Position numbers and translations under genes: made by a program | Shown here: positions 2,861 to 20,000 of the stretch, piece after piece | Layout: each line of letters opens with the position of its first letter | Position numbering within the stretch: position 1 is the stretch's first letter | Assembly (NCBI GenBank): GCA_045837725.1 | Contig: JBEWZL010000123.1 | Coordinates: forward strand, 433,110-453,109 | Length of the DNA: 20,000 nucleotides | DNA from: Vermamoeba vermiformis | Taxonomy: Eukaryota | Direction: 5' to 3' | The notes under the pieces: generated by a model | Told to the model about the DNA's origin: nothing | Databases searched by the model: none | Seen by the model: only the letters and a program-made list of their open reading frames with translations

Positions 2861-5799
2861 ATGGAGATAACAGGCCTTGCGTTGAAAGAAGCTGCGAACG
2901 TAGCTTCTGGCAAAGATCACGATGGTAAACTCATTTCGGCGTTAGCCGAATTTAAGACCAATTTATTATCATTTTACTTGTTCTTTTAACCTCGCAAATA
3001 TCACCTTATTTTATTTTAAAGTGATTAATCAGCTGAACTAACATTTTAATTTCGCTAGAATACGTCGTGTATCGAGACGATGCAATTTCTATTTTAAAGT
3101 AAGTTACAGTAACTTAATATTTATTACGCACTATTTTGTGATTTTCGTCTCACCACATAACTGACTTTCGCAAATCTCAGACACAAAAAACGAAGCAAGC
3201 TTGGTAGCCGAGTTTTATTTTTACGCTTGGCGTTTTTAGTTATCTATATGCTTGCTCTAGCACTGCAGCAAACTCCTGACCGGTACGTGTTTCGAAATCT
3301 AAAAAGTGCGCCAAACTAAGATCTCGCGTTGCTCAGCATTGCAAGCATTGTGAAGCCTGTTAGAGCGAATTGGGATCCTAGTTTTGACGGTATTAACAGT
3401 CCTGTAAGTTTGACAGTTGTCGTTAGCTGACAATTTTACTAACTGCAATTTCTCTGTACAGATCGATTGGTATAACGTAAGTAGGCAGCCCAAAAATTAT
3501 TTAAAATTAATTTCAACAATAGTGGATGAGAGGGACGTTTGCCGGAGTAATTTTTGTGGGCACAGATCCAAGCGGCCAACCGCTGCCTCCGCGAGAGATC
3601 AACTTGGTCGCGCAAGCGAGTAAACTCATGTCTCCTGTTGTCATTGAAAGGAATAACGGAGGAGAGGACAATTGTGATGGTAAATACACTGTTCTGTAGA
3701 AATTTTCAACAACTTTTTCGTAGGTCGGTTTGCGGATGTTTACCCTGAATGTTTCGATGACTCGTTCACAGGTAAAAATATGTTACTTCATGTTTAAATT
3801 TCTAAATATGTCGCTAGAGCTTGATCTTAACGTTGACGAAACGACTTTCAACTCGGTCACGTTCAACGACTCGTTGTTCTTAGTCTCCAGCGATTACAAC
3901 GTGATTATCATCCCCGGCAATGTTTCAGATCCCGTGGCGGTCAATTCAATGATCAGTGATTTGCAAAGTCGAAACTGGATTGATCGAACGACTCGTACTA
4001 TTCGTGTTTCATTCGTGTTGTACAACGGCAACTGGAACGTGTTCATCAGAAACGACTTGGTACGTCCATATAATGTTGCTAAGATCGACTATTAACTCAA
4101 TTCAGACCGTTCTATTCACTACGTCCGGCACTGTGCGAAAAGAAATGTTGATTTCACCTGCCAAATTGGAACTGTACGAAGATCGAGTAGACAAGTTCCG
4201 TGGATTTTTGGAAGTATTTTTGCTTCTCGCTATCATTGGCTTCATGGTGTTTGAAATGCACTTCGTTCCGTTGAAGAGAAAAAAGCCGTTCTGGAGACCC
4301 GAAAATGTTGATAAGATGCTTTGGTTCTTGGTAAGCGTTGATCGTTATTTATGCGTGCTGTTGTGCTAATGTCTATCAGCTCACTCTTTCCTGCGCTGCT
4401 TTGTGGTGCGCTATCATCGGTGTATTCGACGCCGTAGTCTTCGACCCAGCTACTCTGTTGACCGACATTGAAGAAACCAACGGCATTTTCTTGTCGATCA
4501 AGCTGTTCACTGCCTACCGAGTGTTGAGCGCGTTAAGTAAGAGTTTGATTTTATCGTATATCTTCCTTTCTTTTTCTGACTCGTTGACAGATTTGTTGTT
4601 CACCCTCTACTTGACTGTCAAGGACATGCGTCTGTCTACGAACTTGTCTCTTGTGTCGCGCGCTATTAATAGAGTAAGAATAACCTTTCCTGTATTTTTA
4701 GCGCTAACAAGAAGTTTAGGCTGCCGCTGACTTGGTGTTCTTCTTGTTCTTGTTCTTCGTAGTATTTTTCACCTACGCCTTCATCGGCTTTTACTACTTT
4801 GCCGAAGTTGACCCACAATTCAAGACTTACCTCGCTGCGATTGAGTCGCTGTTCCAATGGTTGCTCGGTCAAGTTATTTTTGACACGCTGTACAAAGAGA
4901 GTCCCGGTGTTGGTCACTTGTACTGCTGGGGCTTCGTCATTGTGTTGATTTTCTTGTTGGTAAGTAATTCGATACATTGTATTGTGCGACGTTTTCTCAT
5001 CTCTTGCAGTTCAACATGCTTATCGCTATCATTATCGATGCTTATGGCTTCGAAAAAGAACAAACCGCAAAACTCCGCAAGACCAAGCTTGGTATCATCG
5101 AAGAGTTTAAATCATTGGACGCCAAGCGCAGGAGGAAACAAATTCAGAAGGGCAAGCTCACCACTGATCAAATCTTGGAGCGATTGCAAGCTGAAGATAT
5201 GGAGCTTGAGCGCGTGTTGACGAAATCTGATTTGCAGCAAATCACGTAAGTGTTAGAATCCGTAAAAACAATCGCGAACTCGTTTCTAAGCGTGGTTTTA
5301 GCGACTGGAGCGAGGAGCAAATCAGCGCTTTCTTGAAGAAGTTTGGTGAAAAGAACACTGCTGGCAAGTTGAACCGCGATCAACAACAGTTGATGGAAGA
5401 GTTCGAAAAGCAAATGCAATATCAAATGGCAAAGATGCAGCAGGAAATTTTGGGTGCGTTCCTACACATATTTACCTAAATTTGACGATGAGTGCTAATT
5501 CGATGTAAAACAGCGCAAGTGGCCACGTGGTTGGGCAAGCCCGTTCCTGAAGCGAATATTCGTCCTATGCTCAGCCCGCGAAAGGTCGTTAGTCCGCGCA
5601 ACAATAATGCTTCGCCTGTGACCTTGGACGATAAGTAAGCTGATATGATTTACCGTGTCATAGTAATTAACGCTGTTTTTGTTATTATAGGAACATTCGT
5701 ATGAGTTTGATCAATCCTGTAACCGTCAAGAACCTGCAATCTGAGACTAAACACGACTCTTCAAGCTCTTCGAGCGACAACGAGGCAGACAACGTCTAA
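2861..5799 (+). CDS. Polycystin-2 (PKD2/TRPP)-like cation channel, multi-exon
   Basis: Polycystin-domain signature LQSRNWIDRTTRTIRVSFVLYNGNWNVF, hydrophobic TM segments, pore region FKTYLAAIESLFQWLLG, S6 FLLFNMLIAIIIDAY, and a coiled-coil-like C-terminus. Includes a 15-nt microexon at 3462-3476. Last exon 5691-5799 ends DNEADNV-TAA. Confidence 0.88.
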
Positions 5800-5950: not shown

Positions 5951-8484
5951 ATGGAGTCCGAGGAGAAGAGCGGAACCGAATCTGGCGATCTGCGTTGGGT
6001 ATTGGCCAAACCAGAAGGAGATCTTCCTCCAGTAATGTTCGGACATTCCGCTGTTATTTGGAAAGACTCAATGTATATTTTTGCTGGTTATTCTTTCGGT
6101 TATTGGCGAGATCTCTTTCATTATGATTTAGGTATGCCTCTACAATTTTTAAAAATATAATTACCTTTATCTTTACGTTAAATATTAAATGGCACGACGC
6201 GTGCGAATAATAATTTTCATTTTGAAATTAACGCTCAATTTTAAATTTGATTTGGCTGGAAATTTAATATTGTACAGTAAAAAACGAGTGGAACGATACT
6301 ACAAGAATTAAGAGCGAACTACCTGCGCATTTGGTTGGTCGACAATACCACACAGCGGTCGTTTATGAAGACCAGATGTGGGTTCTGATGGGCGCTGGGC
6401 CCGGACAAGTTTTAAAAGAGTTATTTACGTATAATTTCCGTAAGTTAAATACAGATTAAAGAGATCAAGTATTAATTTTCAAAGGAACTCACGCGTGGTC
6501 ACCCGTCCCAATCAACGACGATTTTCCTCCCATTCGTTATCTTCAATCGGCAGTTGTATATAAAGATGCGATGTGGATATTCGGAGGAAAATTGAACACG
6601 TACAATAACGATTGCGTGAACGACCTACACCGCTTCGATTTCAGTACGTGTCATCAAAGATCTGGCAATTTAAAACCTAACCGTTTCAATATAGAAACAC
6701 TTAAATGGACTGAAATTAAAGTCCCTGATTATCTTCGACCTGCGCAGCGTCGCACACATTCAGCAGTTATTCACAACGATTGCATGTACATATTTTCAGG
6801 CTGGAACGGCGTCGATTATTTCGATGACTTGTGGGAGTTTAATTTCGGTAAGTTAATTGAGACGCGTGATTAATATTAATTCTAATGCAATTCTACAGAA
6901 TTACGTCGCTGGTCCCTTGTACACACGCTCGGAGACAAACCAACGGGTCGTCAGTTGCACACCGGTGTCATGTACGACGGTGAAATGTGGGTGTTTGGCG
7001 GGTACGATTCACATGAATTCTACAACGACTTGTACAAATTCAACTTCGGTAAGATAATGATCAACTGACAATTAATAGCACTAACCTCGGGCAGAAACAT
7101 GCATGTGGACTAAATTCGAACTCGATCACAAACCTGGTCCGAGAAATGCACACTCAGCAGTTGTTTATGAAGGTGCAATGTACATATTAGGAGGAAACAA
7201 CTTCTTTGAGCCTGAGGATTCGCTGTGGAAATTAGGTAAGTAAATTGTTCGATACGGTCTTCGGCTAGGGATTAATGAACTTTAGAATTGCCGCATCGAC
7301 AACGCTTCTCTTTGAACGAACAATTAACAAATGATTTTCATGGATTACTCAACAACCAGCGTATGACGGACATACACTTGACCATCAACGGCAAAGAGTT
7401 TCAATTGCACCGATTTATGTTGTTGGCACGATGTCCGAAATTCCTGCAGCTTGCAGAGTCAGACAAATTGCTGCACTTCGACCTGTTCGTGGGTGAAGAG
7501 GGTGCCGAGTTACTTGAAAACGTGATCGACTTCATTTACACGGATCGACTGTCCGTGTTTCGAAAAGCAAATTGGGAGACATTGTTTGAAGTTTTGGAGT
7601 TTGCTCAAAGCATCAACTTTGACCAGCTTGTGCATGCCTGCGAGTACATGATTTCAGCGCGTGCCCGAGTGGACAACATTAACGAGATCGAAGCTCGTGC
7701 TGCCGGGGCACCCAACTTGTTGGCCTGGTACGTTTACGCGAGTGTTGTCATCCTATTTTATTAATTAACACGATATAGGTGTAAATATTTCAGCGATAGC
7801 ACGGTTGATATGCGTGACCCTGCTCTTCTAGTCCCATTGTTGTTTGAACCGAAAGAACCCTCTGAAGAAGTGCGTTTGACTTACGAGCCAACTCTCGCTA
7901 AAGATATGCTGCGATTATACACTGACCAAGTACAAACCGACTTGACAATAGTAACCCAAGCACGTAGCTTTTCTGTGCATCGAACGGTTCTCCTTGCACG
8001 GTAAGAAAAAGTATAATAACGCTATATTAAGCGGTGCTGACAAATGTAGGTGTCCCTATTTCGAAGGTTTAATGCATTAAGTCAAAACACAGCAGAGAAC
8101 ATTAACCACGATTTGAAAATACCCGAAGAAGATTTTGAAACAATGTTGAAGTTCATCTACTCCTCTGAAGTGCACTTCAAGCCAGAGAGCTTCTTCTCCT
8201 TGATTGCTGAAGCTTCATTTTACATGATTGATTCTGAACAGTTCTACGAAGCATGCTTTGAGCATTTTGAGTCTCATATCTCACTGGAGAATATCTACAA
8301 TTTGTCCAAAATTGCAGCACAATTCCCCGAGATGACCACCGTTAAGAATTGCTTGCTGGAGTTTGTCAAGAAAAATTGGGCAACTGTGAGGCAGCAAATC
8401 AATGATTGGCAGGTTGGTTTACTAGATTCTCTAGATTGGACAAGAGCATTATGGGACTTCAAGAAAATAGAAGATGTAGATTAA
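5951..8484 (+). CDS. Kelch-repeat plus tandem BTB domain protein (LZTR1-like Cullin-3 adaptor), multi-exon
   Basis: Six Kelch repeats (GHSAVIWKDSMYIFAGY; YHTAVVYEDQMWVLMG; QSAVVYKDAMWIFGG; THSAVIHNDCMYIFSG; HTGVMYDGEMWVFGG; AHSAVVYEGAMYILGG) followed by two BTB domains (TDIHLTINGKEFQLHRFMLLARC; TDLTIVTQARSFSVHRTVLLARC). Confidence 0.9.
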
Positions 8485-8574: not shown

Positions 8575-9295
8575 ATGGAAGATTGGCAAAATACACTTTC
8601 TTGGTGGGATACCAAATCCATTTGATGTGGATGGGGCCATGCTCAATCACATCAACAAAATGGACACAAACACCCTGCAAGAATAAATTTCTGTCTTATT
8701 GACAGTAAGTTATATCAGGCAGTCAAATTCACTGAGATCACAAAAGAATTGCTGAAGCCTGCAAATGAGATTGGCAACAACCTGAAGTTGGGAATTGACT
8801 TTGCACTAAAGAAAGTCAAAAACAAAAAGTGGGTTCCGTTGGTAAAGTAAGTAATCCGATCAATAGGTGTGTTTCAATTTGTAACTTATTTTTTGAAGAG
8901 TGTCAGAGAAAGAAGGCTCACTGGTTTGGTATGAAGACAGATGTAAGCGATCACATCTGCCTGTGTGATTTGTGTCAAAGAACACAAACTGAATATACAG
9001 TGGCCCCACTTGAGCATATAATTCCAGAGTATGTCTCAAATTATAGCATATTACTATTTTAATTAATGCTTATAAAATTAACAAGCTTCAATTTTTTAGG
9101 AAACCATTTGTCTGTTGGCAGATTGACTTCACGACAATTGCAGGACATGATGGCTATTTGTTAATTGTAATTGATTGCTTCAGCAAATACATATGGTTCA
9201 AATGGCTTGCAACCAAGGAAGCATCTGGCGTAACTGCATTTTTGCTCTCTATAATTAAGAAAGACGGTGCAAAGCCTCACATCATTCATGCATAA
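8575..9295 (+). pseudogene. Decayed retroviral-type (rve) DDE integrase with introns; Ginger/TDD-like DNA transposase remnant
   Basis: ATG at 8575 with an in-frame TGA at 8623. Zn-binding half HWFGMKTDVSDHICLCDLCQR. Intron 9029-9099 joins APLEHIIPE to KPFVCWQIDF...YLLIVIDCFSKYIW...KPHIIHA, then TAA (9293-9295) where the second catalytic Asp (SDNG) is expected. Confidence 0.85.
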
Positions 9296-10270: not shown

Positions 10271-10337
10271 GCATTTATATAGGGTCTAGGGTTATATATC
10301 ACATTGGGGTTAGCATTTTACAGGGTTAGGGTTATAT
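10271..10337. repeat. Imperfect direct repeat with telomere-like TTAGGG/CTAGGG words
   Basis: GCATTTATATAGGGTCTAGGGTTATAT (10271-10297) and GCATTTTACAGGGTTAGGGTTATAT (10313-10337). Confidence 0.7.
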
Positions 10338-10387: not shown

Positions 10388-11028
10388 AATGCGAATGGGT
10401 TTACTAAATAATGCGCATGAGTTCTCTAATAATGCGCATGAGTTCGCTTAATTAGTACAAAATTGTACCAAGAGTACGTTGAAAAATAAAGTTTATTTTA
10501 CAGTTACAGTACGTTGTACATGAAATTTCTATGTCAATTCCCATTATATGGGATTTGATTCAACTCATTCGCATGTAGACATCAGCATGAGGACATTCGC
10601 ATGAAGACATCAGCATGAGAACATTCGCATGCTTCATCCGAATGACTGACACTAATGGGGCATGCGCATGTAAATTAAACATGCAAATGTATTTACTATC
10701 ATGCGAATGCAGTAACGGACTGTCTGCCATGCGAATGTACTCGCTGCCATGCGAATGCGATCACTTGACTGTCATGCGAATGTACCCGCTGCCATGGTGA
10801 TCACTTGACTGTCATGCGAATGCAATCACTGTCATGCGAGTGTAATCACTTGGCTTTCATGCGAATGCGTTGGGTTTCATGCGAATGCATTGGCTGTCAT
10901 GCGAATGGACTAACTCGCTGTCATGCGAATGCACAAGCTGGCTAACATGCGAATGCACTCCTTGGTTGTCATGCGAATGCTACGAGCAAGTATTAGTCTG
11001 ATGCTTGGCATTGCTCATCATGCTAATG
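10388..11028. repeat. Array of ~24 copies of a 10-bp quasi-palindrome CAT(G/T)CG(A/C)ATG in two opposed blocks
   Basis: CATTCGCATG at 10566, 10594, 10622, alternating with CATCAGCATG at 14-bp period. Perfect palindrome CATGCGCATG at 10661. Eleven exact CATGCGAATG copies between 10700 and 10979, with motifs mostly 20-28 bp apart, plus variants. Confidence 0.92.
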
Positions 11029-11576: not shown

Positions 11577-14496
11577 TTACATCGTCTTTTGTCTCTTCTC
11601 CTCTCGCTCTTGTTCGAGAAGTTTTGCCAAGGAGAACGTAGTAATCTTTCTCTTCTTCTCGGGGTTGGCAGCGCCGGCGGGTGCATTGTTAGACGGAGTA
11701 CTACCATCGTTGTTGACCATGACAGGAACAGGCTTGTTGTACGAAACCTTCGGAACAGGCACCGGTGTAGGTGATGGCATCACTGGCACAGGCAAGGGGA
11801 CTTTTTGCTCTCGTTGTCCTAGTATGACCTTTGGACGACAGTACTTGACGACGGTGTTGGGCTTAGGTTTGCTTGGTTTCGGAGTCATGCGAGCACTCTC
11901 GATGGACGTAGTTCTCCGGCTACAGTCACCGTACACAAGCTTACGGGATGGCCCTGGCTTCAAGTTCGTGTTTGCGCCAGTTCGCATGTTGGTGTTTGCG
12001 TCGGTTTTCAGGTTGGTATTTGTGCTTGTGTCCTTGTTCGTTTCCCATTCAGGTGGAGCATTCAAATCCAAAGGAGGCGTTGAGGGCGCGTTCGAATCCT
12101 CAGCAACAATCGAGTTGATCGTATGGGTAGGAGAGTCAGACGAAGAAAGTGAACTGTGAGCAGCGTGGTAAGAATCAGACTCAAGAGCATCATCAGAATC
12201 AGAGACGATATGAGAAGATTCGATGGACTCGCACTCGGCATCACTCTCGTCGCTGTCCTCGCTGGCCTCACTTTCTTCGCTTTCTTCGCTTTCTTCGCTT
12301 TCTTCACTCTTGTCATCACTTTGGTCCTCGTCGCTCTTGTCGTCATCACCGGAATTAGCGCCAGAACCTCCTGATTTGCCTCCCGAGCTGGATCCATCAG
12401 CAGAGTCGCGTGAGCTGTCATCATTGCTCTCCTTCGAATCAGATGAAAAACCAGAAGACAGCTCCATAGAGCTGCTGTCAAGGCTGGACTTTTTTGTCGA
12501 GTAGCAACCTCCGATTGTAGCCCAGTACGTGTTGACGAGTGACATGAACGCAAGTAGCTTGGGCCCAGGCAAAGTTTGCTTGGTGCCATCTTTGAACAAG
12601 ACTTCGAAGCAAACGGACTGTCTCTTGCCAACGAACTTGTGACCAACGATTCGGTCAATACTGTCTGCAAAGTCGTCATGAGTCTTGTCGTAGCGCTTCT
12701 CAAACTTGTTGATGACGCTCGCCATGGCCTCGGAAGGAGCTATTCCAACCGTCTCGTTGACCTCCTTCAGCGTCTTTTCGTTGACACCAGCACGTTGAAC
12801 TCTGTCGTAGTGCGTGCTCATAACGGCAGGTGAAGTATTGATCAGTGCTGCGTGCTTCTCGCTGAAAAACTTCGAGATGCCTTCGGTGTCGTTGTTCAAG
12901 TGATGTTCGGTCAGAAAAGAGACCAGCGCACGACGGAAATAAGCGCAGCTGATCGCTCTTCCTGGGAAGTAACTCGCAACGACATTGCTCACCACCTTCG
13001 AGAGTGTAGTGAAGTCTAAACGAGCGAAGGTTAGCGACAAGATGAGTTTGAAACAATTACTTACTAGGTGCGTTACCGTCTCGATTGACCCACATGGACT
13101 CAACTCCTTCGTTACGAACCAGAGGCAAGTAGTGCTCGAACCAAATTCGCAACGGTACTGCAAACGCTGCAGGCAGCAAGAAGAAATCTGTCTTAGCTCG
13201 CTTGACTTTTTCCGGTGGTGGGAAGAACTTGACAGTGTTTCCCTCAAAGACAATGTTCTAATTAAATAATTAGTAAAGTATTGATTAACGGAGCCGATTT
13301 GTAGTTCGTACCGACACCGTCATTGAAGCCGTGAACTGTCGTCGTTGTCCTCCAAGATACATCATTCCAAGGACGAACAAGTTGCCCATGAAGTTGAACA
13401 TTCCTTGTCGCGACAAAGCTGAACTTTGTCGCTCTTTCGTCAAGAACTTGTCATCCAAGTTGATGTAATACACCAACTTGTCACAGATGTACGCGTTCAA
13501 CTGCCGTAGCTCGTCTTGATGAAGCCACTGCCCAAGTAACATCAGGTTCTCAATCACCATTTTATTCGCGTTAGCCTTGGCTTCGTCTTTCGCTTCTGCA
13601 GGTCAAAATAGTATCAGAATCGTAATCGTACAGAATATGTTCGCAACTTACTTGCACAAGGAGCACGCAGCAAATCCTCCACTGCATCAATCCGTGCCCT
13701 GTAATTGGCAAACTCTTCGAGACCCTATTACAGAATTAGATTACACCCCATGACCACAAGTAGTTACTTACGTGAAGATACTTCAAGAACATTCGAATAA
13801 TCTTCAGGCAATTTGCAATCGTGCTTGCAGACTTGCCCATGGATTCGTACCACCGCGGAAAAGCGGCCGCCACGCGAACGTCCAGTAGATGACGAAGGTC
13901 TACTACGACTGGTTTCACTTCCGTATCGACAAAACGAAAGAAGATGCCAAGCATAGAACGAGTTTCGGCGCCGCGATCAGAGCCTGTGTTGGACAAGTGC
14001 TTCTCTTTCACCTTGAGTTCGTCTGCGGCAGAGGATTTTTTCCTGGTCTTGCGCTCACGTTCGATGTAAGTATCGAACAACTTCGGTACCTTGAAGTACT
14101 TGACCAAGACTTGATCAAGCGAGAGAGCATTAATTCGTAGCGGCTTTCCTGTTCTTGAATCCCCTATTAATAAAGTTAACAAACTTAACCACCGGGACTA
14201 ATTAGTCTTAAACTTACTTTCGGCAACAGCAAACTCCTTAGTTGCTAAGTCTTCAGGTACGTCTTCCATATCAACGACTACAGGAGCGTCGCTATATTGA
14301 AGCAAAGCCTTTTTGACGTTACTGAGGTCAGTGCGAAGCCTTTTAATCTCCGGCGAATCTGCTTAGACTGTAAGATTCGGTTACAGAATTACTGAAAGGC
14401 TTACCATTCATCGTCGCTGTAGACTCTTTTTTCTGATCCGTGTCCTACAAATTGTCAACAAAAATTTTTAAAATTCTGTTGTGTTACCTTCTCCAT
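11577..14496 (-). CDS. Tyrosine recombinase (phage-integrase fold) with C-terminal chromodomain-like domain and acidic/Ser-rich tail, ~856 aa, 8 exons
   Basis: Exons 14496-14488, 14444-14405, 14358-14218, 14163-13772, 13724-13652, 13595-13312, 13257-13065 and 13015-11577 join through GT-AG introns into one stop-free frame. Core-binding helix GKSASTIANCLKIIRMFLKYL; catalytic motifs GGQRRQ (R), PEKVKR (K), SCAYFRRALVS (HxxR position), LINTS...THYDR (Y). Confidence 0.82.
12271..12308 (-). repeat. Coding 9-bp tandem repeat (SEE)n in the YR acidic tail
   Basis: CTTTCTTCG repeated about 4 times on the + strand, encoding SEESEESEESEE on the - strand. Confidence 0.85.
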
Positions 14497-14628: not shown

Positions 14629-15482
14629 ATGGAACCACACAACCAAACTCCACTCCTCGATCAATACTACGGCAGTGATATGAGCGACGAGACAGTTGAG
14701 CAGGCATATCTTAAGATTGAGGAGCTGCTTAGCTACGCACGAGAGGACAGTAACAACACCATTCTTGTTGGCGACGGCGATGATATTGAGTGCGAACAAA
14801 CCTTACCCTATGAACACGAGAACGACGAGAACGACGAGAAGAACGAACGGGAAGTATTATCATGGCAAATCAAGGATCCGCGCACGTGGTTAGAGAAAGA
14901 TATAAATAAATCCCACGCACATGGTTTGAAGACAATTTTATCATGAAATTGCCTGAAGAAGAACGAGAAGAAGTCCGACGGAAATACAACAACGGTAACT
15001 AAAAATAACTCCGCCGGATAACCTCCGGTACAAAAATGTTAGCGATTAATAAATTATGCATTTAATTACAGAAATGGGAGAGAAGTAAGTCTTACCTCAT
15101 TCTAGTCTTAATTTTAACATGCCATAGCGAACTGCGATGCTTATGTTCGAAAGAACACGGACACTTTTACGTGCACTCAAAAGATTTTTCCGAGCAATGG
15201 TTTGGTAGAGGTGCGTTAGCTGGATTGCTCGGAATGACAAAGAACTCTTTCTGTTCTAAGCTATCGATCTATGTGCTCAATTGCCCGGCTGGCTGCGCAC
15301 CGTTCAACACGTGCAAAGTCTTTCATTCTAGCGGCAACGGCAGCCCAATACGCCCAGAACGTTACTATACGTTGGAAGAAGCCAACGATATACTGAGACA
15401 ATGGCTTACGCGCCCAGGAGGGAAAAAGGATTGGGTAAAGAGATTGCACGAGGCCAACGATTTTTTGAAAAACTTACTATAG
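14629..15482 (+). CDS. Small divergent gene: acidic N-terminus plus putative Bro-N/winged-HTH-like DNA-binding domain; apparent frameshift near 14905-14915
   Basis: MEPHNQ...KDPRTWLEKD changes frame to PRTWFEDNFIMKLPEEEREEVRRKYNN. An intron, a 13-nt microexon (AAATGGGAGAGAA) and a second intron follow, then ELRCLC...EQWFGRGALAGLLGMTKNSF...RYYTLEEANDILRQW, ending at TAG 15482. The domain call is by weak resemblance only. Confidence 0.6.
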
Positions 15483-15834
15483 TAGGCTTCTGGGTTATAG
15501 AAATTTAAGGGTTATAGAGTTTAAAGTCCAGTTAAACCCCTTTTTTGTTAAATTTTTGACTTTTTTTGTCTTTTTGCCGTCACTTTTGCATTGAAAAGCA
15601 TGCCAAAATAAAAACACTAAGAGACAAGTTTAACTTTAATTTACTTAGAATAAATGTATGAAAAACAATAAATAGAAAAGAACAGCAAGAGTTTGTTTGA
15701 AGTTTTTTTTATTTTTACATAAAACAGTTACAACTGGTGTTTTTATTTGGCAAGGCAGTGAAAGCAAAGCTCTGCGGACCAAAGATAGGCTGTAGACTAA
15801 AGTAAGTTAAGTAATGTTAAGTTAAACATTGCCT

Positions 15835-16481
15835 GGTGCAATGTGGAACATCCCCTTTGAAAAGCTAAAGTTGAACAAGGGGTGGTTCTACAAGGAGCCA
15901 GGGGTACAGACACATGGAAGACTGGTTTGTGTGGTGCTGGTCCTATGTAAAAACAAAGTCTAACAGGGGGAGGTATCGCATGGAACCAACCTGTTAAAAA
16001 AATTGAAGTTCAAACAAGGGGCGGTTCCTCAAGGAACCGGGGGGCAAGAAAAACTAAGTCCAGCAACCCCGGTACTGTGAGGAACTGCCCTTTGGGAAAA
16101 AATAAAGTCCAAAGAGGGGCCGGTACGGCAAGGAACCGACCCTTGAAAAAAAATAAAGTCCAAGAGGGGTCGGTTCCTCAAGGAACCGGGGTCAAAAAAA
16201 AACAAAGTCCAAAAAGGGCCGGTTCGGCGAGGAACCAACCCCTGAAAAAAACTAAGTCCTACAGGGGTCGGTTCCTCAAGGAACCGGGGGTAAAAAAAAC
16301 TAAGTCCTGCAAACCCCGGTTCCATGAGGAACCGACCCTTGGAAAGAAACAAAGTCCAAACTAGGGTCGGTTCCACAAGGAACCAGGGGTGAGGAAACAA
16401 AGCCCAATTGAGGCTAGTTCCCCGCAGGAACATAGTACTGGGGCAGGCTAGGTCTTGAAAGGGCTGGTTCCACTTGGAACA
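15835..16481. repeat. Tandem array (~49-50 bp period, ~13 units) of 16-bp palindromes GGTTCC-N4-GGAACC separated by A-tract/AAGTCC linkers (parS-like)
   Basis: Cores start at 15835, 15884, 15972, 16023, 16071, 16122, 16172, 16221, 16270, 16318, 16369, 16416, 16466, with a degenerate unit near 15924. GGTTCCTCAAGGAACC is exact at 16023, 16172 and 16270. Confidence 0.95.
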
Positions 16482-17570
16482 GCTCATCCAGGATTAGCAC
16501 ATCGAGGTGCCAGTTCAGAAAAAAAGGCTGTATAATGAATTTGGCCCAGAAAACAATTAATTGGGCATGTGCCTAGTGGCACAAGTGAAAAAATCAAGTA
16601 AAAGAAATAAATTTGAGCTAATCTGGAATAAAAAATTTTGACATCCAAAAATTAGCCTTGGTGTCGTAAAAATTTGAAACCAATCATGTAATTAATGGGA
16701 AAACAGTGGCATACTATTTCAGGTATAGCCACTGCTCAAGAAATTAAAAAGTGACTTACCTGGCAACCGTGGCTCAGATGGGCAAACAGTCTCACGCAGG
16801 AGTGCACAGACACGCAGAGTGTATTACCACACAGGAGTGCACCAAGCACTCGACCATAGGCAACACACTGTGCTTGTCTGTGCATGAGAGTGGTGGTGTT
16901 GTGGCTGCGAGAATAGATAAACAAAAACAAAATCTTTTGCGAATTTTTTTTGTTGTGGTTCAAAGAGTGAACAAAAACTTTTTGGACCAATCACATCACA
17001 GGAAGTGTTAGTGTAGGGCTCCAGGACCCTAGCATGCAGTAGCAGTGCTAGAGGCAATGCAAGGCACTACACTGTCGATCTACTAGTGCAAAGACCACCA
17101 TGCAGCAAGATCTTGGTGGGGAAGTTAAGTTTTGGAAAGAAGGTCCGAGACTTAGGCATCCTATTAAGTAGAAGCTCTGCAACTCTCCACCCGGTCCCTG
17201 CAGTTGTTAGTTGAAAGGCAACCAAATGAATGCACAAGGAAGCCCGTGTGTAATTATTTTTTTTTGTTGTGAAGCAAAGTTGTGAAACAAAAAGTTTTTG
17301 GACCAATCCCAGAGAGCCTGCTGTGAATCTCACAGGGTGGAATTGTGCAGGAATAGGAACACTCACAAGTTAGGCCATTGCTGGTAAGCACTGGGTATTA
17401 AGGGAAGTATAGCTATGAAAGTTGACACATTCCAGTGTTCTTCGAAAACCGATCCGATATTTTTTCACAACCAATGACTAAATCTGCCTAATAGAAAGCA
17501 TCATTATAGTTAAACTCACAAGCACCAACAAATTAGAGTCACTAGGTAATAAACAAAGCCAACAGCAACG

Positions 17571-18230
17571 AGAAATTTCATTCGAATAAAATTTATAAAA
17601 TTCTTCTGCAGTAGATTTTTCTTGCGCTTACTTTGAGATTTAACGCTGCTCAAATGGGTTGCCAATACCTCATATCAAGCTGTCTGCAATATATGGGCAA
17701 AGAGAAGGTCAACAGGCACCAAACTAGCAAGGTGAGCACAGATCTGAATCCGATCCAAAGTCAAATTTTTTTTTGCTTTGCTTACTATACCTGATGGCAG
17801 AAATAATAGGAATTGATGTGGAGCTCTCTATATTAAAGCATAAGTAGCTGGGCCAGTAGAAAGGAGAAATTTCGGGTTAATAAACTTAATAAAAATCTTC
17901 CCCAGTAGAATTTTATTATTTTTAGTGTTGCGAGATTTCATGTGGCTTAAATTGTGATGTGTGCTTCATATTGAGCTATCTGCAGTATCATTCAATAGAA
18001 CAGGTCAACAGGCACGAGATGAGCAACATGAGTCCCCGATCTGAACTCGCATCCAAAGGTATTCTGGATGCAGGTTGCACAATGGCCCTGGTGACTGCAA
18101 TGTGCAAAATTAGTGAAAAGGTTTGAGAGTGAAAACCCACACAACTGAGTCAATATAAGGGAGGTATAACTGTTGCAGAAGGTTGACAAAATCTCCCCAG
18201 AATAATTTTTTCTCTCTAGGGAGATTTCAC
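17571..18230. repeat. Diverged ~295-bp tandem duplication (two copies plus part of a third)
   Basis: Matching blocks ~295 bp apart: AGAAATTTC at 17571/17866; CATATCAAGCTGTCTGCAATAT vs CATATTGAGCTATCTGCAGTAT at 17671/17967; AGGTCAACAGGCAC at 17706/18002; AAAATCTTCCCAG vs AAAATCTCCCCAG at ~17892/18188. Confidence 0.75.
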
Positions 18231-18288
18231 AACCAAACAAAATCTTTTTTCCAACGGTTCTATTTCATTTCAATATTTTGCTGTTATC

Positions 18289-20000
18289 ATGAGTAACACA
18301 AATATACGTGTTATGTCAGCAGACCTTGCAGCTGCTGTGCAAAGTCAACAGAGATCTTACGTAGAGATCTCAGATCAGTATTGGAAACAGAATGTTCTGG
18401 TAAGTATTGCTCAAATAATTAATTTAACTATGTAATAATTTTAATAATAATATTTTAACCTTTACAAGGTTATTTTGGAGGGTAAAATTGCAATTTAATT
18501 TTTTTGTGTCAGATTTGACTTTTTTCTTTTCACAGCTCCTCCTAATTCAATGTATTTTAATTAAACAATATTCCCTATATATTTTTACATATAAATTAAT
18601 AGCTTTTTAAATAGTCACACCAACTCTCTAATGAGTGGAAAATGGTCACGTGTGCCGAACTCAAGGCAAATCCCAAGGTCTTCAACAAGGCAAATTGCTG
18701 CGTCCCAGACTGCAAAGAGAAGGCACAGTACTCGTAAGTAACTCCAATCTATTGTTTTCAAGCCTAACTAATCCCTTGTAGCATCCCCACGTCAATAATT
18801 GATGATGGTGCAGCAGTGTGCAAAAACCACCTCAGACGCTTCACCATCACGCAAAGCTGCCACCCACTAAATAAGAAGGAGTCAGTTATTTTTGGTAGAG
18901 CGTAAGTATTGTCAGTTTAAATATATTATTGACTCTAATTTCCTTTCATGTTAGGTTCAACATCCGCACTCTAAACCGTGTTGGTCTCAATCGAGTGATC
19001 AACAAAATAGAGAAGCATGGTTGGGATTCGAACCAAGGATCCCTCCATGGTGTCATTGTGACAAATGGCAAGATAAAAAAGGTTGCCATCTTTGCAGGTA
19101 AGTAAAAGTAGTTGTTTTTTTTGCTTTATTTAGGTTATTAACAGTTTATTGTAGGTCAGCATCGATTTGAAGCTCTGATTTACTTGTGTGATCTGCACAA
19201 GAAGAATTTGGAGCATCAAATCCTTCTTTATGCTTTTGACTCCGAGGTGGAGATGCGAGCTGAAGGACACAGCATCCAGTCTAAAGAACAGACTGTGCGT
19301 AAGATGTCCTACCTGGAAAAGATCCTCCAGGTGCAGCATTTGGCTCATGAAGCTTATGGGGATACCCAAGATAATTGGTTCGCAGGCAATCGAACCAAAA
19401 ACTATTGGGATGCTATTGCTGGTCGCAAACTTCATGGTAAGTTGATTTTTGTTTTAATTAGATCTTTTTTAACCATTTGTTAAAAGATGTTGAATGGCAG
19501 CTGAGGTCGTTGGATTATAATGTCCTCAAAGAGCTTTCAACTTACCATGCCAACCATGAGGCAAGGAAAAAGTTCTTCCAAGTGTAAGTAATAACCAATA
19601 TTAAACCTCTAAAACTAAAAATAACATATTCTTTTAGCCCTTTTCTGAAAACTGACCTGCAGTGCTTGGCAAAATTGCCAAGGAAAGATCAGAAGATTTT
19701 CATGGAGCGACAGCAAGCACAGTGGCAGGAGGTTCACCACAAACGTAAGCAAATAGTGTGAGGTATTTCACCATTCTAAATCTTTTTTTTAGGTGCTGAT
19801 GTTAATTCAGCCCAAAATGTTAGCATTATGGCTGAATTGTTTGTTGATCATGCGGTGAAGGCCTTTGACAAGCTTCGCAAGCATTACAATGCGCTGGTGA
19901 GTTCCTTTTCAATTTTAAATTATTAAAAAAAAAACTGAATGATTCGCACATAGGAGGCACAAGGCAAAGACCTTGCTGCATTTAAAAGGAAACTGTGCCA
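18289..20000 (+). CDS. ParB/Sulfiredoxin-fold protein with an N-terminal Cys/His zinc-finger-like motif, multi-exon, 3' end beyond the window (5' exon structure uncertain)
   Basis: Spliced translation: CCVPDCKEKAQY...VCKNH; FNIRTLNRVGLNRVINKIEKHGW...IKKVAIFAG|QHRFEAL (intron 19098-19154 splits the GQHR motif); VRKMSYLEKILQVQHL; RSLDYNVLKEL; LAKLPRKDQKIF. The frame is open across all exons from 18615 onward. Confidence 0.75.

Follow-up and report, generated by a model that had tools for sequence, protein, structure and literature searches.

What is a ParB-like domain, split by introns, doing at the very end of a eukaryotic contig? The question is raised by the last 20 kb of contig C123 in a 43-Mb eukaryotic assembly, that of Vermamoeba vermiformis (JBEWZL010000123.1, positions 433,110 to 453,109). 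This whole 20,000-nucleotide stretch is called the window here, and the contig ends at window position 20000. An initial annotation described, from position 18615 onward, an intron-split gene for a prokaryote/virus-type nucleotide-binding DNA clamp or nuclease. The present analysis shows that the gene is cargo of a multicopy subtelomeric mobile element with inverted-repeat arrays, a setting that explains the gene, the ParB-like region being the first domain of a protein of ~1,200 amino acids (aa).

Structure and Conservation of the Gene

The gene is real and under selection. A nine-exon model on the plus strand runs from 18289 to 20000 with 376 codons and no stop; all eight introns are of the GT-AG type, the first being 215 nt long and the rest 48-57 nt. 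Exon 1 (18289..18399, aa 1-37) opens with a predicted ATG, is in frame with exon 2, and can be aligned with exon 1 of a diverged paralog on contig C65. Exons 2 (18615..18733, aa 38-76) and 3 (18782..18901, aa 77-116) both contribute to a putative C-x4-C-x19-C-x2-H zinc site, the former its first two Cys and the latter its CxxH half. The ParB Box I region lies in exon 4 (18955..19097, aa 117-164), with residue roles assigned through hhalign and the accessible text of PMC13229309, while exon 5 (19155..19436, aa 165-258) holds Box II, GQHR, and the helices after it. Downstream of the ParB domain come the helical exon 6 (19487..19583, aa 259-290), exon 7 with the LAKLP helix (19638..19744, aa 291-326), exon 8 (19793..19896, aa 327-361), and the start of exon 9 (19954..20000), beyond which the gene goes on in the copies on C265 and C272.

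All peptides quoted in the initial annotation are present, i.e., NIRTLNRVGL from aa 119, GQHR at aa 165-168, RKMSY at aa 213, and LAKLP at aa 301, and GQHR is indeed formed over the 19097/19155 junction: among five AG acceptors for the donor at 19098, only that at 19154 leaves an open frame, and without splicing the frame closes two codons inside the intron. The intron-split gene thus stands, with an open spliced model and conserved introns. Its start does not, the probable one being upstream, at 18289; roughly the first third of the gene is all that the window covers, and the multicopy element around it had been missed.

Near-identical copies of the gene are found on C272 and C265, the model for the latter comprising 1,205 aa in 17 exons. 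Over the 376 codons, the window and C265 copies differ at 12 synonymous and 4 non-synonymous positions. The C65 paralog has 1,224 open codons, is 44-51% identical across the ParB exons, retains AGQHRFEALIYL, and shares 16/16 introns in position and phase. These shared introns and the 12 to 4 ratio support the gene beyond chance, as does an independent metagenomic protein, P0011, in which an intron at the same place is read through and the motif is GKHW. Decayed relics of it (pseudogenes) lie on C233 and C302. Four RNA runs compared with the C265 copy gave almost exclusively poly-T matches, plus a single 229-nt contig in which a splice donor is passed without splicing, and we therefore draw no inference from them on expression or splicing.

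The Carrier Element

The window contains the left 4.5 kb of the element (15478..20000, plus strand). Similarity to the C272 and C265 copies begins at ~15474 and is bounded by unlike flanks, so that three near-identical copies stand in unrelated surroundings; the element measures more than 14.5 kb in the C272 copy. The junction, TTAC|TATAGT at 15477/15478, is placed by empty sites on C183 and C117, which read TTAC|CG.GGG. To its left, the insertion cuts an open reading frame (ORF) of a neighboring repeat (15066..15477, plus strand) that has 416 codons at the C183 empty site. The left terminus, TATAGTAGGCTTCTGGGTTATA... (15478..15560, plus strand), is common to 21 loci; the 23 matches to the left-end region consist of these 21 related termini and the two empty sites, and AC or AT precedes the terminus at 21 of 22 junctions. 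The empty sites, the common terminus with different flanks, and the relics on C233 and C302 argue for mobility and against segmental duplication.

All 21 left termini are oriented to a contig end and lie within 27 kb of it, a polarity for part of which assembly breaks could account. Nine related right-end loci were found: eight show degenerate and then plain TTAGGG repeats, two of them (C226 and C283) running into telomere arrays and a third (C205) lying on a contig that ends in TTAGGG, and the ninth stops at its own contig end. TTAGGG arrays are present at several contig ends of the assembly. The C272 copy continues for 14.5 kb and is then interrupted by a second element family, its remainder being absent from the 10 kb checked. 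A complete relative of 11.9 kb on C62 carries other internal genes, including one for a ParB with the motif DGQHR.

No target-site duplication flanks the complete C62 element, and the C272 stretch covered here contains no inverted copy of the left end. The ORFs scanned in the C272 and C62 elements gave no family match to a transposase, an unrecognized or trans-acting mobilase being possible. The marks of Plavaka/EnSpm, KDZ, or other DDE transposons were thus not found: no transposase among the scanned ORFs, no terminal inverted repeats in the C272 stretch, and no duplication at the C62 element. A Helitron was dismissed by inspection, the ends being without TC...CTRR. Telomere-attached Penelope-like elements (Terminon/Athena) carry a reverse transcriptase and a terminal hammerhead ribozyme. 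No reverse transcriptase was seen among the element ORFs scanned (a genome-wide search for it was not made), and no hammerhead ribozyme in six terminal loci at E<=1. The scanned ORFs likewise gave no family match to ParA (again with no genome-wide search). Movement of the element by addition at chromosome ends is one possibility.

A few further observations concern the elements. The second family, which starts with ATTCATATATG, occurs at L011:7620-8173 (C272) and ~25 other loci, often head-to-tail with the first. At L050 (C265, ~69210-69290), the left terminus has its initial ~38 bp in tandem duplicate, and this element copy interrupts the upstream part of a DGQHR-family gene. Large element ORFs without a family match are found at L005:2659-4734, L005:3-1548, L011:8562-9878, and L095:1872-4534, and one of them could be an unrecognized mobilization protein. 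On C83, an ORF that looks SET-domain-like by eye (L103:7582-8166, plus strand) lies ~7 kb downstream of a left terminus of the family; the red-algal PAG2 likewise has a SET domain.

Fold of the N-Terminal Domain and Its Relatives

The N-terminal domain is supported as a member of the ParB/Srx-like fold family by profile matches that are modest but above controls, by ESM features, and by a sister family that is predicted to fold onto ParB. The spliced N-terminal region, compared by hhalign with bacterial ParB-like sets, gave E values of 1.4e-4 and 2.8e-4 (score 29-32, a modest probability of 41-52%). Reversed queries gave E 0.24-0.53, and 60 column shuffles reached a maximum score of 17.3 compared to 29.5. 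The alignment pairs FNIR with YQPR, the K..G helix end, and GQHR with GERR; thus, R121, G139, and G165-Q-H-R168 align in order to QPR, G, and GERR, and are retained in C65. These are exactly the R, G, and GxxR boxes to which the initial annotation had pointed. The ESM features of exon 5 point to DUF6551 (0.93; the 156 shared features are fewer than is usual within one family) and, as a lead only, to DndB/DGQHR (0.86), with 7/10 family matches in one family or clan.

Other searches returned little. PF14072 had no match on the window exons, the PDB sequence search gave spurious DBL and WbgU matches or none, and no homolog of exon 5 was found among longer proteins. A two-sequence profile run against 1.84 billion representatives gave four matches, i.e., the C65 copy, two true fragments, and a repetitive one that was dropped. 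No related loci were found among the metagenome, viral, and GTDB contigs searched.

The sister family is intron-poor, has the motif DGQHR, and lies on related elements (L109-L114, on C62, C289, C158, C204, C4, and C270). It matches ParB with a hhalign probability of 92% (E 6e-7) and the window family with E 9e-5. Its AlphaFold model, from seven sequences, has a predicted local distance difference test score (pLDDT) of 73.6, compared to 34.5 for a single-sequence model of the C62 paralog. In Foldseek, the family model finds M. xanthus ParB first (E 7e-4), followed by Caulobacter and Bacillus ParB and Noc, and it superimposes on PadC with VIA Z 8.9 and a root-mean-square deviation of 3.0 over 100 residues. 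As modeled, the sister family thus folds like bacterial ParB. Its best PHROG hint is phrog_1033 (E 0.054). Comparable scores for this family come from ParB-, DndB-, and GmrSD-like proteins of phages and giant viruses, so that the matches single out no donor.

The downstream domain of the sister family has by eye the look of a decayed methyltransferase, which failed the profile test, and the C62 copy is frameshifted just ahead of the ParB domain, the C289 copy being open. A further ParB-like family, with the motif GGNHR, occurs at six loci (L089-L094, on C233, C270, C188, C53, C11, and C253) and matches the ParB profile weakly (E 0.016); its three scanned loci (C233, C270, and C11) each contain many copies of an inverted repeat of their own.

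Nucleotide-Site Residues and Later Domains

The phosphate-binding R54 and R95 of M. xanthus ParB are kept as R121 and R168, and G73 as G139. The two hydrolysis residues are replaced, with N119 at the Q52 position and Q166 at that of the catalytic E93, the position of the cytosine-binding S68 is a Lys (K134), and for the Box III Asn (N127) no EN..R motif is seen in the window or in C65. The residue roles follow the accessible text of PMC13229309 and bioRxiv 10.1101/2021.05.05.442810. Orphan ParBs are often without Box III, and their nucleotide choice cannot be predicted from sequence or AlphaFold3, according to the available part of PMC12704722.

A canonical ParB is excluded by these replacements and by the failure to detect a helix-turn-helix (HTH) of the ParB type. 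The assignment of GQHR as a DndB/Srx variant survives in part. The GxHR form is there, and membership in either family is not. The window reads AGQHR rather than DGQHR, with an architecture and a context different from those of DndB. In sulfiredoxin the motif is GCHR, with a catalytic Cys; both the window protein and C65 have Gln at this position.

The LAKLP and later helices had been taken as ParB helices, an identification that profile comparison with the HTH region of ParB does not support. Forced global alignments of the helical region to ParB likewise gave no usable match. This negative is at the profile level and is compatible with a divergent HTH. Beyond exon 8, the C265 and C272 copies encode, in order, a Q-rich linker, an unassigned middle domain, a domain with a weak likeness to cupins, and a CxxC...CxxC motif; JmjC was not confirmed for the C-terminus (E 0.09, two-sequence query profile). 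The Cys and His of C-x4-C-x19-C-x2-H in exons 2-3 are conserved in C65, and this motif and the C-terminal CxxC...CxxC suggest zinc sites.

Inverted-Repeat Arrays

Close to the left terminus, the window contains 13 imperfect 16-bp palindromes of the form GGTTCC-N4-GGAACC (15835..16481), mostly 48-51 bp apart; the pattern gives 17 strand-matches in the window, compared to a shuffle mean of 0.48. Consensus sequences were built without a scan for parS, by anchoring on the A-rich spacer and taking the most self-complementary window of each unit, and were then symmetrized, a step that favors palindromes. Of 154 units, 59 fall into one family (33 distinct 16-mers from 12 loci, with a handful of mis-registered units kept), and the symmetrized consensus of this 49-bp array is GGTTCCACGTGGAACC. 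In Table 1 of PMC7022226, as far as its text was accessible, the Pseudomonas parS is TGTTCCACGTGGAACA and that of V. cholerae chromosome I is NGTTNCACGTGAAACN. The inner 14 bp of GGTTCCACGTGGAACC are those of the Pseudomonas/Myxococcus parS core, with 14/16 identical overall. The chance of such a core match is 7e-4 per random palindrome, or ~0.7% over the ~10 motif families examined.

The window sites themselves match TGTTCCACGTGGAACA at 9-14 of 16 positions, the best being 16466-16481 (14/16), while the commonest, GGTTCCTCAAGGAACC, has a decayed center and matches at 11/16. Genome-wide, the array-derived pattern has 54 sites, 53 of which have a left terminus no more than 1.1 kb away, compared to two for the reversed control. 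The most parS-like arrays (GGTATCACGTGAAACC) are on C8, C139, C158, C239, and C266, and none was seen beside the window gene. The remaining 95 units form a homologous 49-bp array of the second element family, with the consensus GTCTCCACGTGGAGAC and 5/8 matches per half-site. No parS-like pair of the element's type was found in the viral contigs searched. A parS-core array in a eukaryotic element looks new; searches of the open-access literature showed no report of one, with the supplements of the red-algal paper discussed below, which lie outside that scope, as a place that could hold a match.

A second type of repeat lies closer to the gene. Three inverted repeats of the AAAATCT-N8-AGATTTT type stand upstream of it, at 17597..17620, 17891..17914, and 18188..18209, the first two within a ~294-bp direct duplication, and a fourth is located past the window's end, in the long intron 10. 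Among seven other ParB loci scanned, six have a recurrent intron or flank motif of their own and C4 has none: C65, C62, C233, C270, and C11 each have a different inverted repeat, and the motif of C158 is in tandem units. The copies in C65 sit in its unusually long introns 3 and 10. Such private motifs in six of seven ParB loci also look new, searches of the open-access literature having shown neither paralog-specific intronic repeats nor such an element structure.

Proposed Role and Alternatives

We consider it fairly probable that the gene encodes a self-recognition accessory protein of the large subtelomeric element. The predicted protein consists of a putative zinc finger, the ParB/Srx-fold domain, a helical domain, the Q-rich linker, the middle domain, the cupin-like domain, and a C4 motif. 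It would act as a dimer, with a nucleoside triphosphate (NTP) bound via R121 and R168, and its helical domain would recognize the inverted repeats of its own element, marking the element as self. Possible outcomes are autoregulation of the gene, shielding from host silencing, or the holding of C-terminal domains that resemble chromatin or DNA modifiers on the element. Because Q52 is changed to Asn and E93 to Gln, slow or no hydrolysis, or the use of another NTP, is probable, and the protein would then be a binder or clamp that stays on DNA rather than a CTP switch that cycles. Of the two repeat classes, we take the paralog-specific ones near and inside the gene to be more probably the sites in use today, with the parS-like array as an additional or ancestral one.

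Several observations weigh against this proposal. Against strictly chromosomal ParBs alone, the hhalign match is not significant (E 0.09-0.11), single window exons have no match in Pfam or PHROG, and a PF02195 search of the organism's own genome found none. The metagenomic homolog P0011 has GKHW in place of GQHR. Neither the DNA-binding regions of 23 bacterial ParBs nor the sister family gave a profile match to the helical region, which leaves DNA binding a prediction. The intragenic repeat of the window family itself is degenerate (four copies), and local duplication alone, with no protein that binds, could also produce repeats specific to a paralog. As to the middle and C-terminal domains, a methyltransferase in the middle domain was not confirmed (N6/N4 methyltransferase profile, E 0.58), nor was PhyH at the C-terminus (E 0.09, a spurious alignment), and the Cupin_8 match of the two-sequence query profile (E 0.013) covers only the 19-column PGEVLHIP motif.

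It is conceivable, although we rate it as unlikely, that the element has retained a bacterial-type ParB-parS module, with an NTP-gated sliding clamp that loads at the subterminal array and spreads over the element, for example in pairing, tethering, or packaging of element ends, or in coating against silencing. The parS core within GGTTCCACGTGGAACC, the position of 53/54 sites near a left terminus, and the chromosomal ParBs as best structural matches of the sister family speak for such a module. However, the window sites have a decayed center, the best arrays are not seen beside the window gene, and the array of the second family, GTCTCCACGTGGAGAC, matches at only 5/8 per half-site, while symmetrization of the consensus itself favors palindromes. 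Both hydrolysis residues are missing from the protein, as is the Asn of Box III, and no ParA was seen among the scanned ORFs. The parS-reading residues R173 and G201 (PMC7383237) cannot be placed, because there is no HTH similarity. Similarly doubtful is a combined version, in which a telomere-directed family without a recognized transposase kept a ParB-parS clamp pair and its paralogs each co-evolved a private intronic inverted-repeat operator.

Somewhat less plausible still is that the ParB fold, without catalysis and without reading DNA sequence, serves as scaffold or activator for another protein, be it its own C-terminal domain or the product of another element ORF, the arrays being bound by a mobilization protein or a host factor. 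Subterminal repeats are commonly transposase sites, and CACGTG, the center of the array, is an E-box. The window array, however, keeps its flanks while the CACGTG center decays, which makes it ill-suited to an E-box reader, and repeats that differ between paralogs lie inside the ParB introns. A scaffold would fit the failure to detect an HTH and the many array-bearing termini that were not seen with the window gene, as well as the phage 5mYOX-associated ParBs, which are without a DNA-binding domain and tolerate NTP-site mutations (PMC13229309, accessible text).

Finally, it is highly improbable that the protein is an effector of the DndB/Osa kind that acts alone, as a nuclease or by degrading nucleotides, or that the gene is a domesticated one of the host, duplicated along with subtelomeric segments: the resemblance of GQHR to DGQHR, the ESM lead to DndB, the giant-virus DndB/GmrSD-like proteins among the matches of the sister family, and the NTPase or nuclease activity described for ParB-superfamily members (PMC10853773, in part) are set against the missing Asp of DGQHR and a long multidomain architecture unlike DndB, and the precise insertion with its empty sites, the common terminus with unlike flanks, and the C233/C302 relics against segmental copying. 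Of the role first proposed for the gene, the ParB fold with introns is therefore kept and the nuclease is not.

Comparison with Known Systems

The kind of gene seen here, ParB cargo with introns, is already known, because comparable genes have been published, namely PAG3 of red-algal Plavaka (EnSpm/CACTA) elements, a gene of Ectocarpus Sola1-1_Ec32, and the ParB-HTH-Dam fusions of chlorophytes and chytrids (PMC4738411, in part). PAG3 combines ParB with a putative 2-oxoglutarate (2OG) oxygenase and has adjacent tandem inverted repeats, for which self-binding is proposed in the available text (bioRxiv 10.1101/2025.02.11.637652). Like the window gene, it has an N-terminal ParB-like domain, is cargo of giant elements, stands beside tandem inverted repeats with proposed self-binding, and is mobile between element families; its best HHpred match, 7BNR, is also a top Foldseek match of the sister family. 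In contrast to PAG3, neither a DDE transposase nor a terminal inverted repeat nor a target duplication was found here, a 2OG oxygenase C-terminus is unconfirmed, and the element is directed to contig ends and has a TTAGGG-like end. The likeness is one of description, and the accessible PAG3 text contains neither a repeat sequence nor a parS match.

Sola1-1_Ec32 carries a gene for a ParB-like protein with an N4C/N6A methyltransferase (accessible text of PMC12477816). Like the window gene, it is a ParB-led multidomain accessory gene (~1,100 aa) in a eukaryotic giant transposon, but its methyltransferase has no counterpart signal in the middle domain of the window family. With the chromosomal ParB/Spo0J-parS systems (M. 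xanthus 7bnr and C. crescentus 6t1f), the window family shares the Box I Arg, the Gly, and GxxR of Box II, and, as far as the sequences go, a palindrome array near the gene whose family consensus equals the 14-bp parS core, with window sites at 9-14/16. It differs from them in the changed Q52 and E93 positions, in the Box III Asn, which was not found, in the lack of HTH similarity, and in being intron-rich with extra domains. In phage, a ParB activates a DNA dioxygenase without need of its NTP residues (PMC13229309, as available). This 5mYOX-associated protein is an orphan ParB with a link to a beta-helix domain that may modify DNA, as here, whereas the window protein is fused and eukaryotic and the identity and activity of its putative oxygenase unconfirmed.

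Flanking Sequence of the Insertion

The flank adjoining the insertion recurs on C183 and C117. The neighboring repeat (11577-14197, minus strand) contains a 580-codon ORF with a chromodomain-like stretch, seen by eye, and a hint of a phage-integrase N-terminal SAM-like domain (Pfam E 0.094). Farther left are tandem arrays on a CATGCG/ATGCGAAT core (10388-10980) and internal degenerate GGGTTA repeats (10281-10335), which resemble the right ends of the elements studied here and may be an older element end or a former telomere. A decayed retroviral-type integrase occupies 8799-9295 on the plus strand (Integrase_H2C2 E 8.5e-5, rve E 1.9e-8). At 3724-5479 and 6460-8484 (plus strand) lie intron-containing host-type genes, which by their look we take to encode a polycystin-type channel and a Kelch-BTB protein.

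Implications

The carrier element is unclassified, with a precise left end after AY, a TTAGGG-like right end, contig-end polarity, and no transposase found. For ParB cargo of eukaryotic transposons, binding to self repeats had been proposed earlier, with neither a defined site nor a test of the binding in the accessible text of the literature covered. The present genome contains several ParB paralogs, candidate cognate inverted repeats, and a parS-core array side by side, and since the paralogs each come with a candidate repeat, self-recognition becomes directly testable. If clamp loading were to prove true, it would mean a ParB-parS mechanism operating on eukaryotic chromatin.

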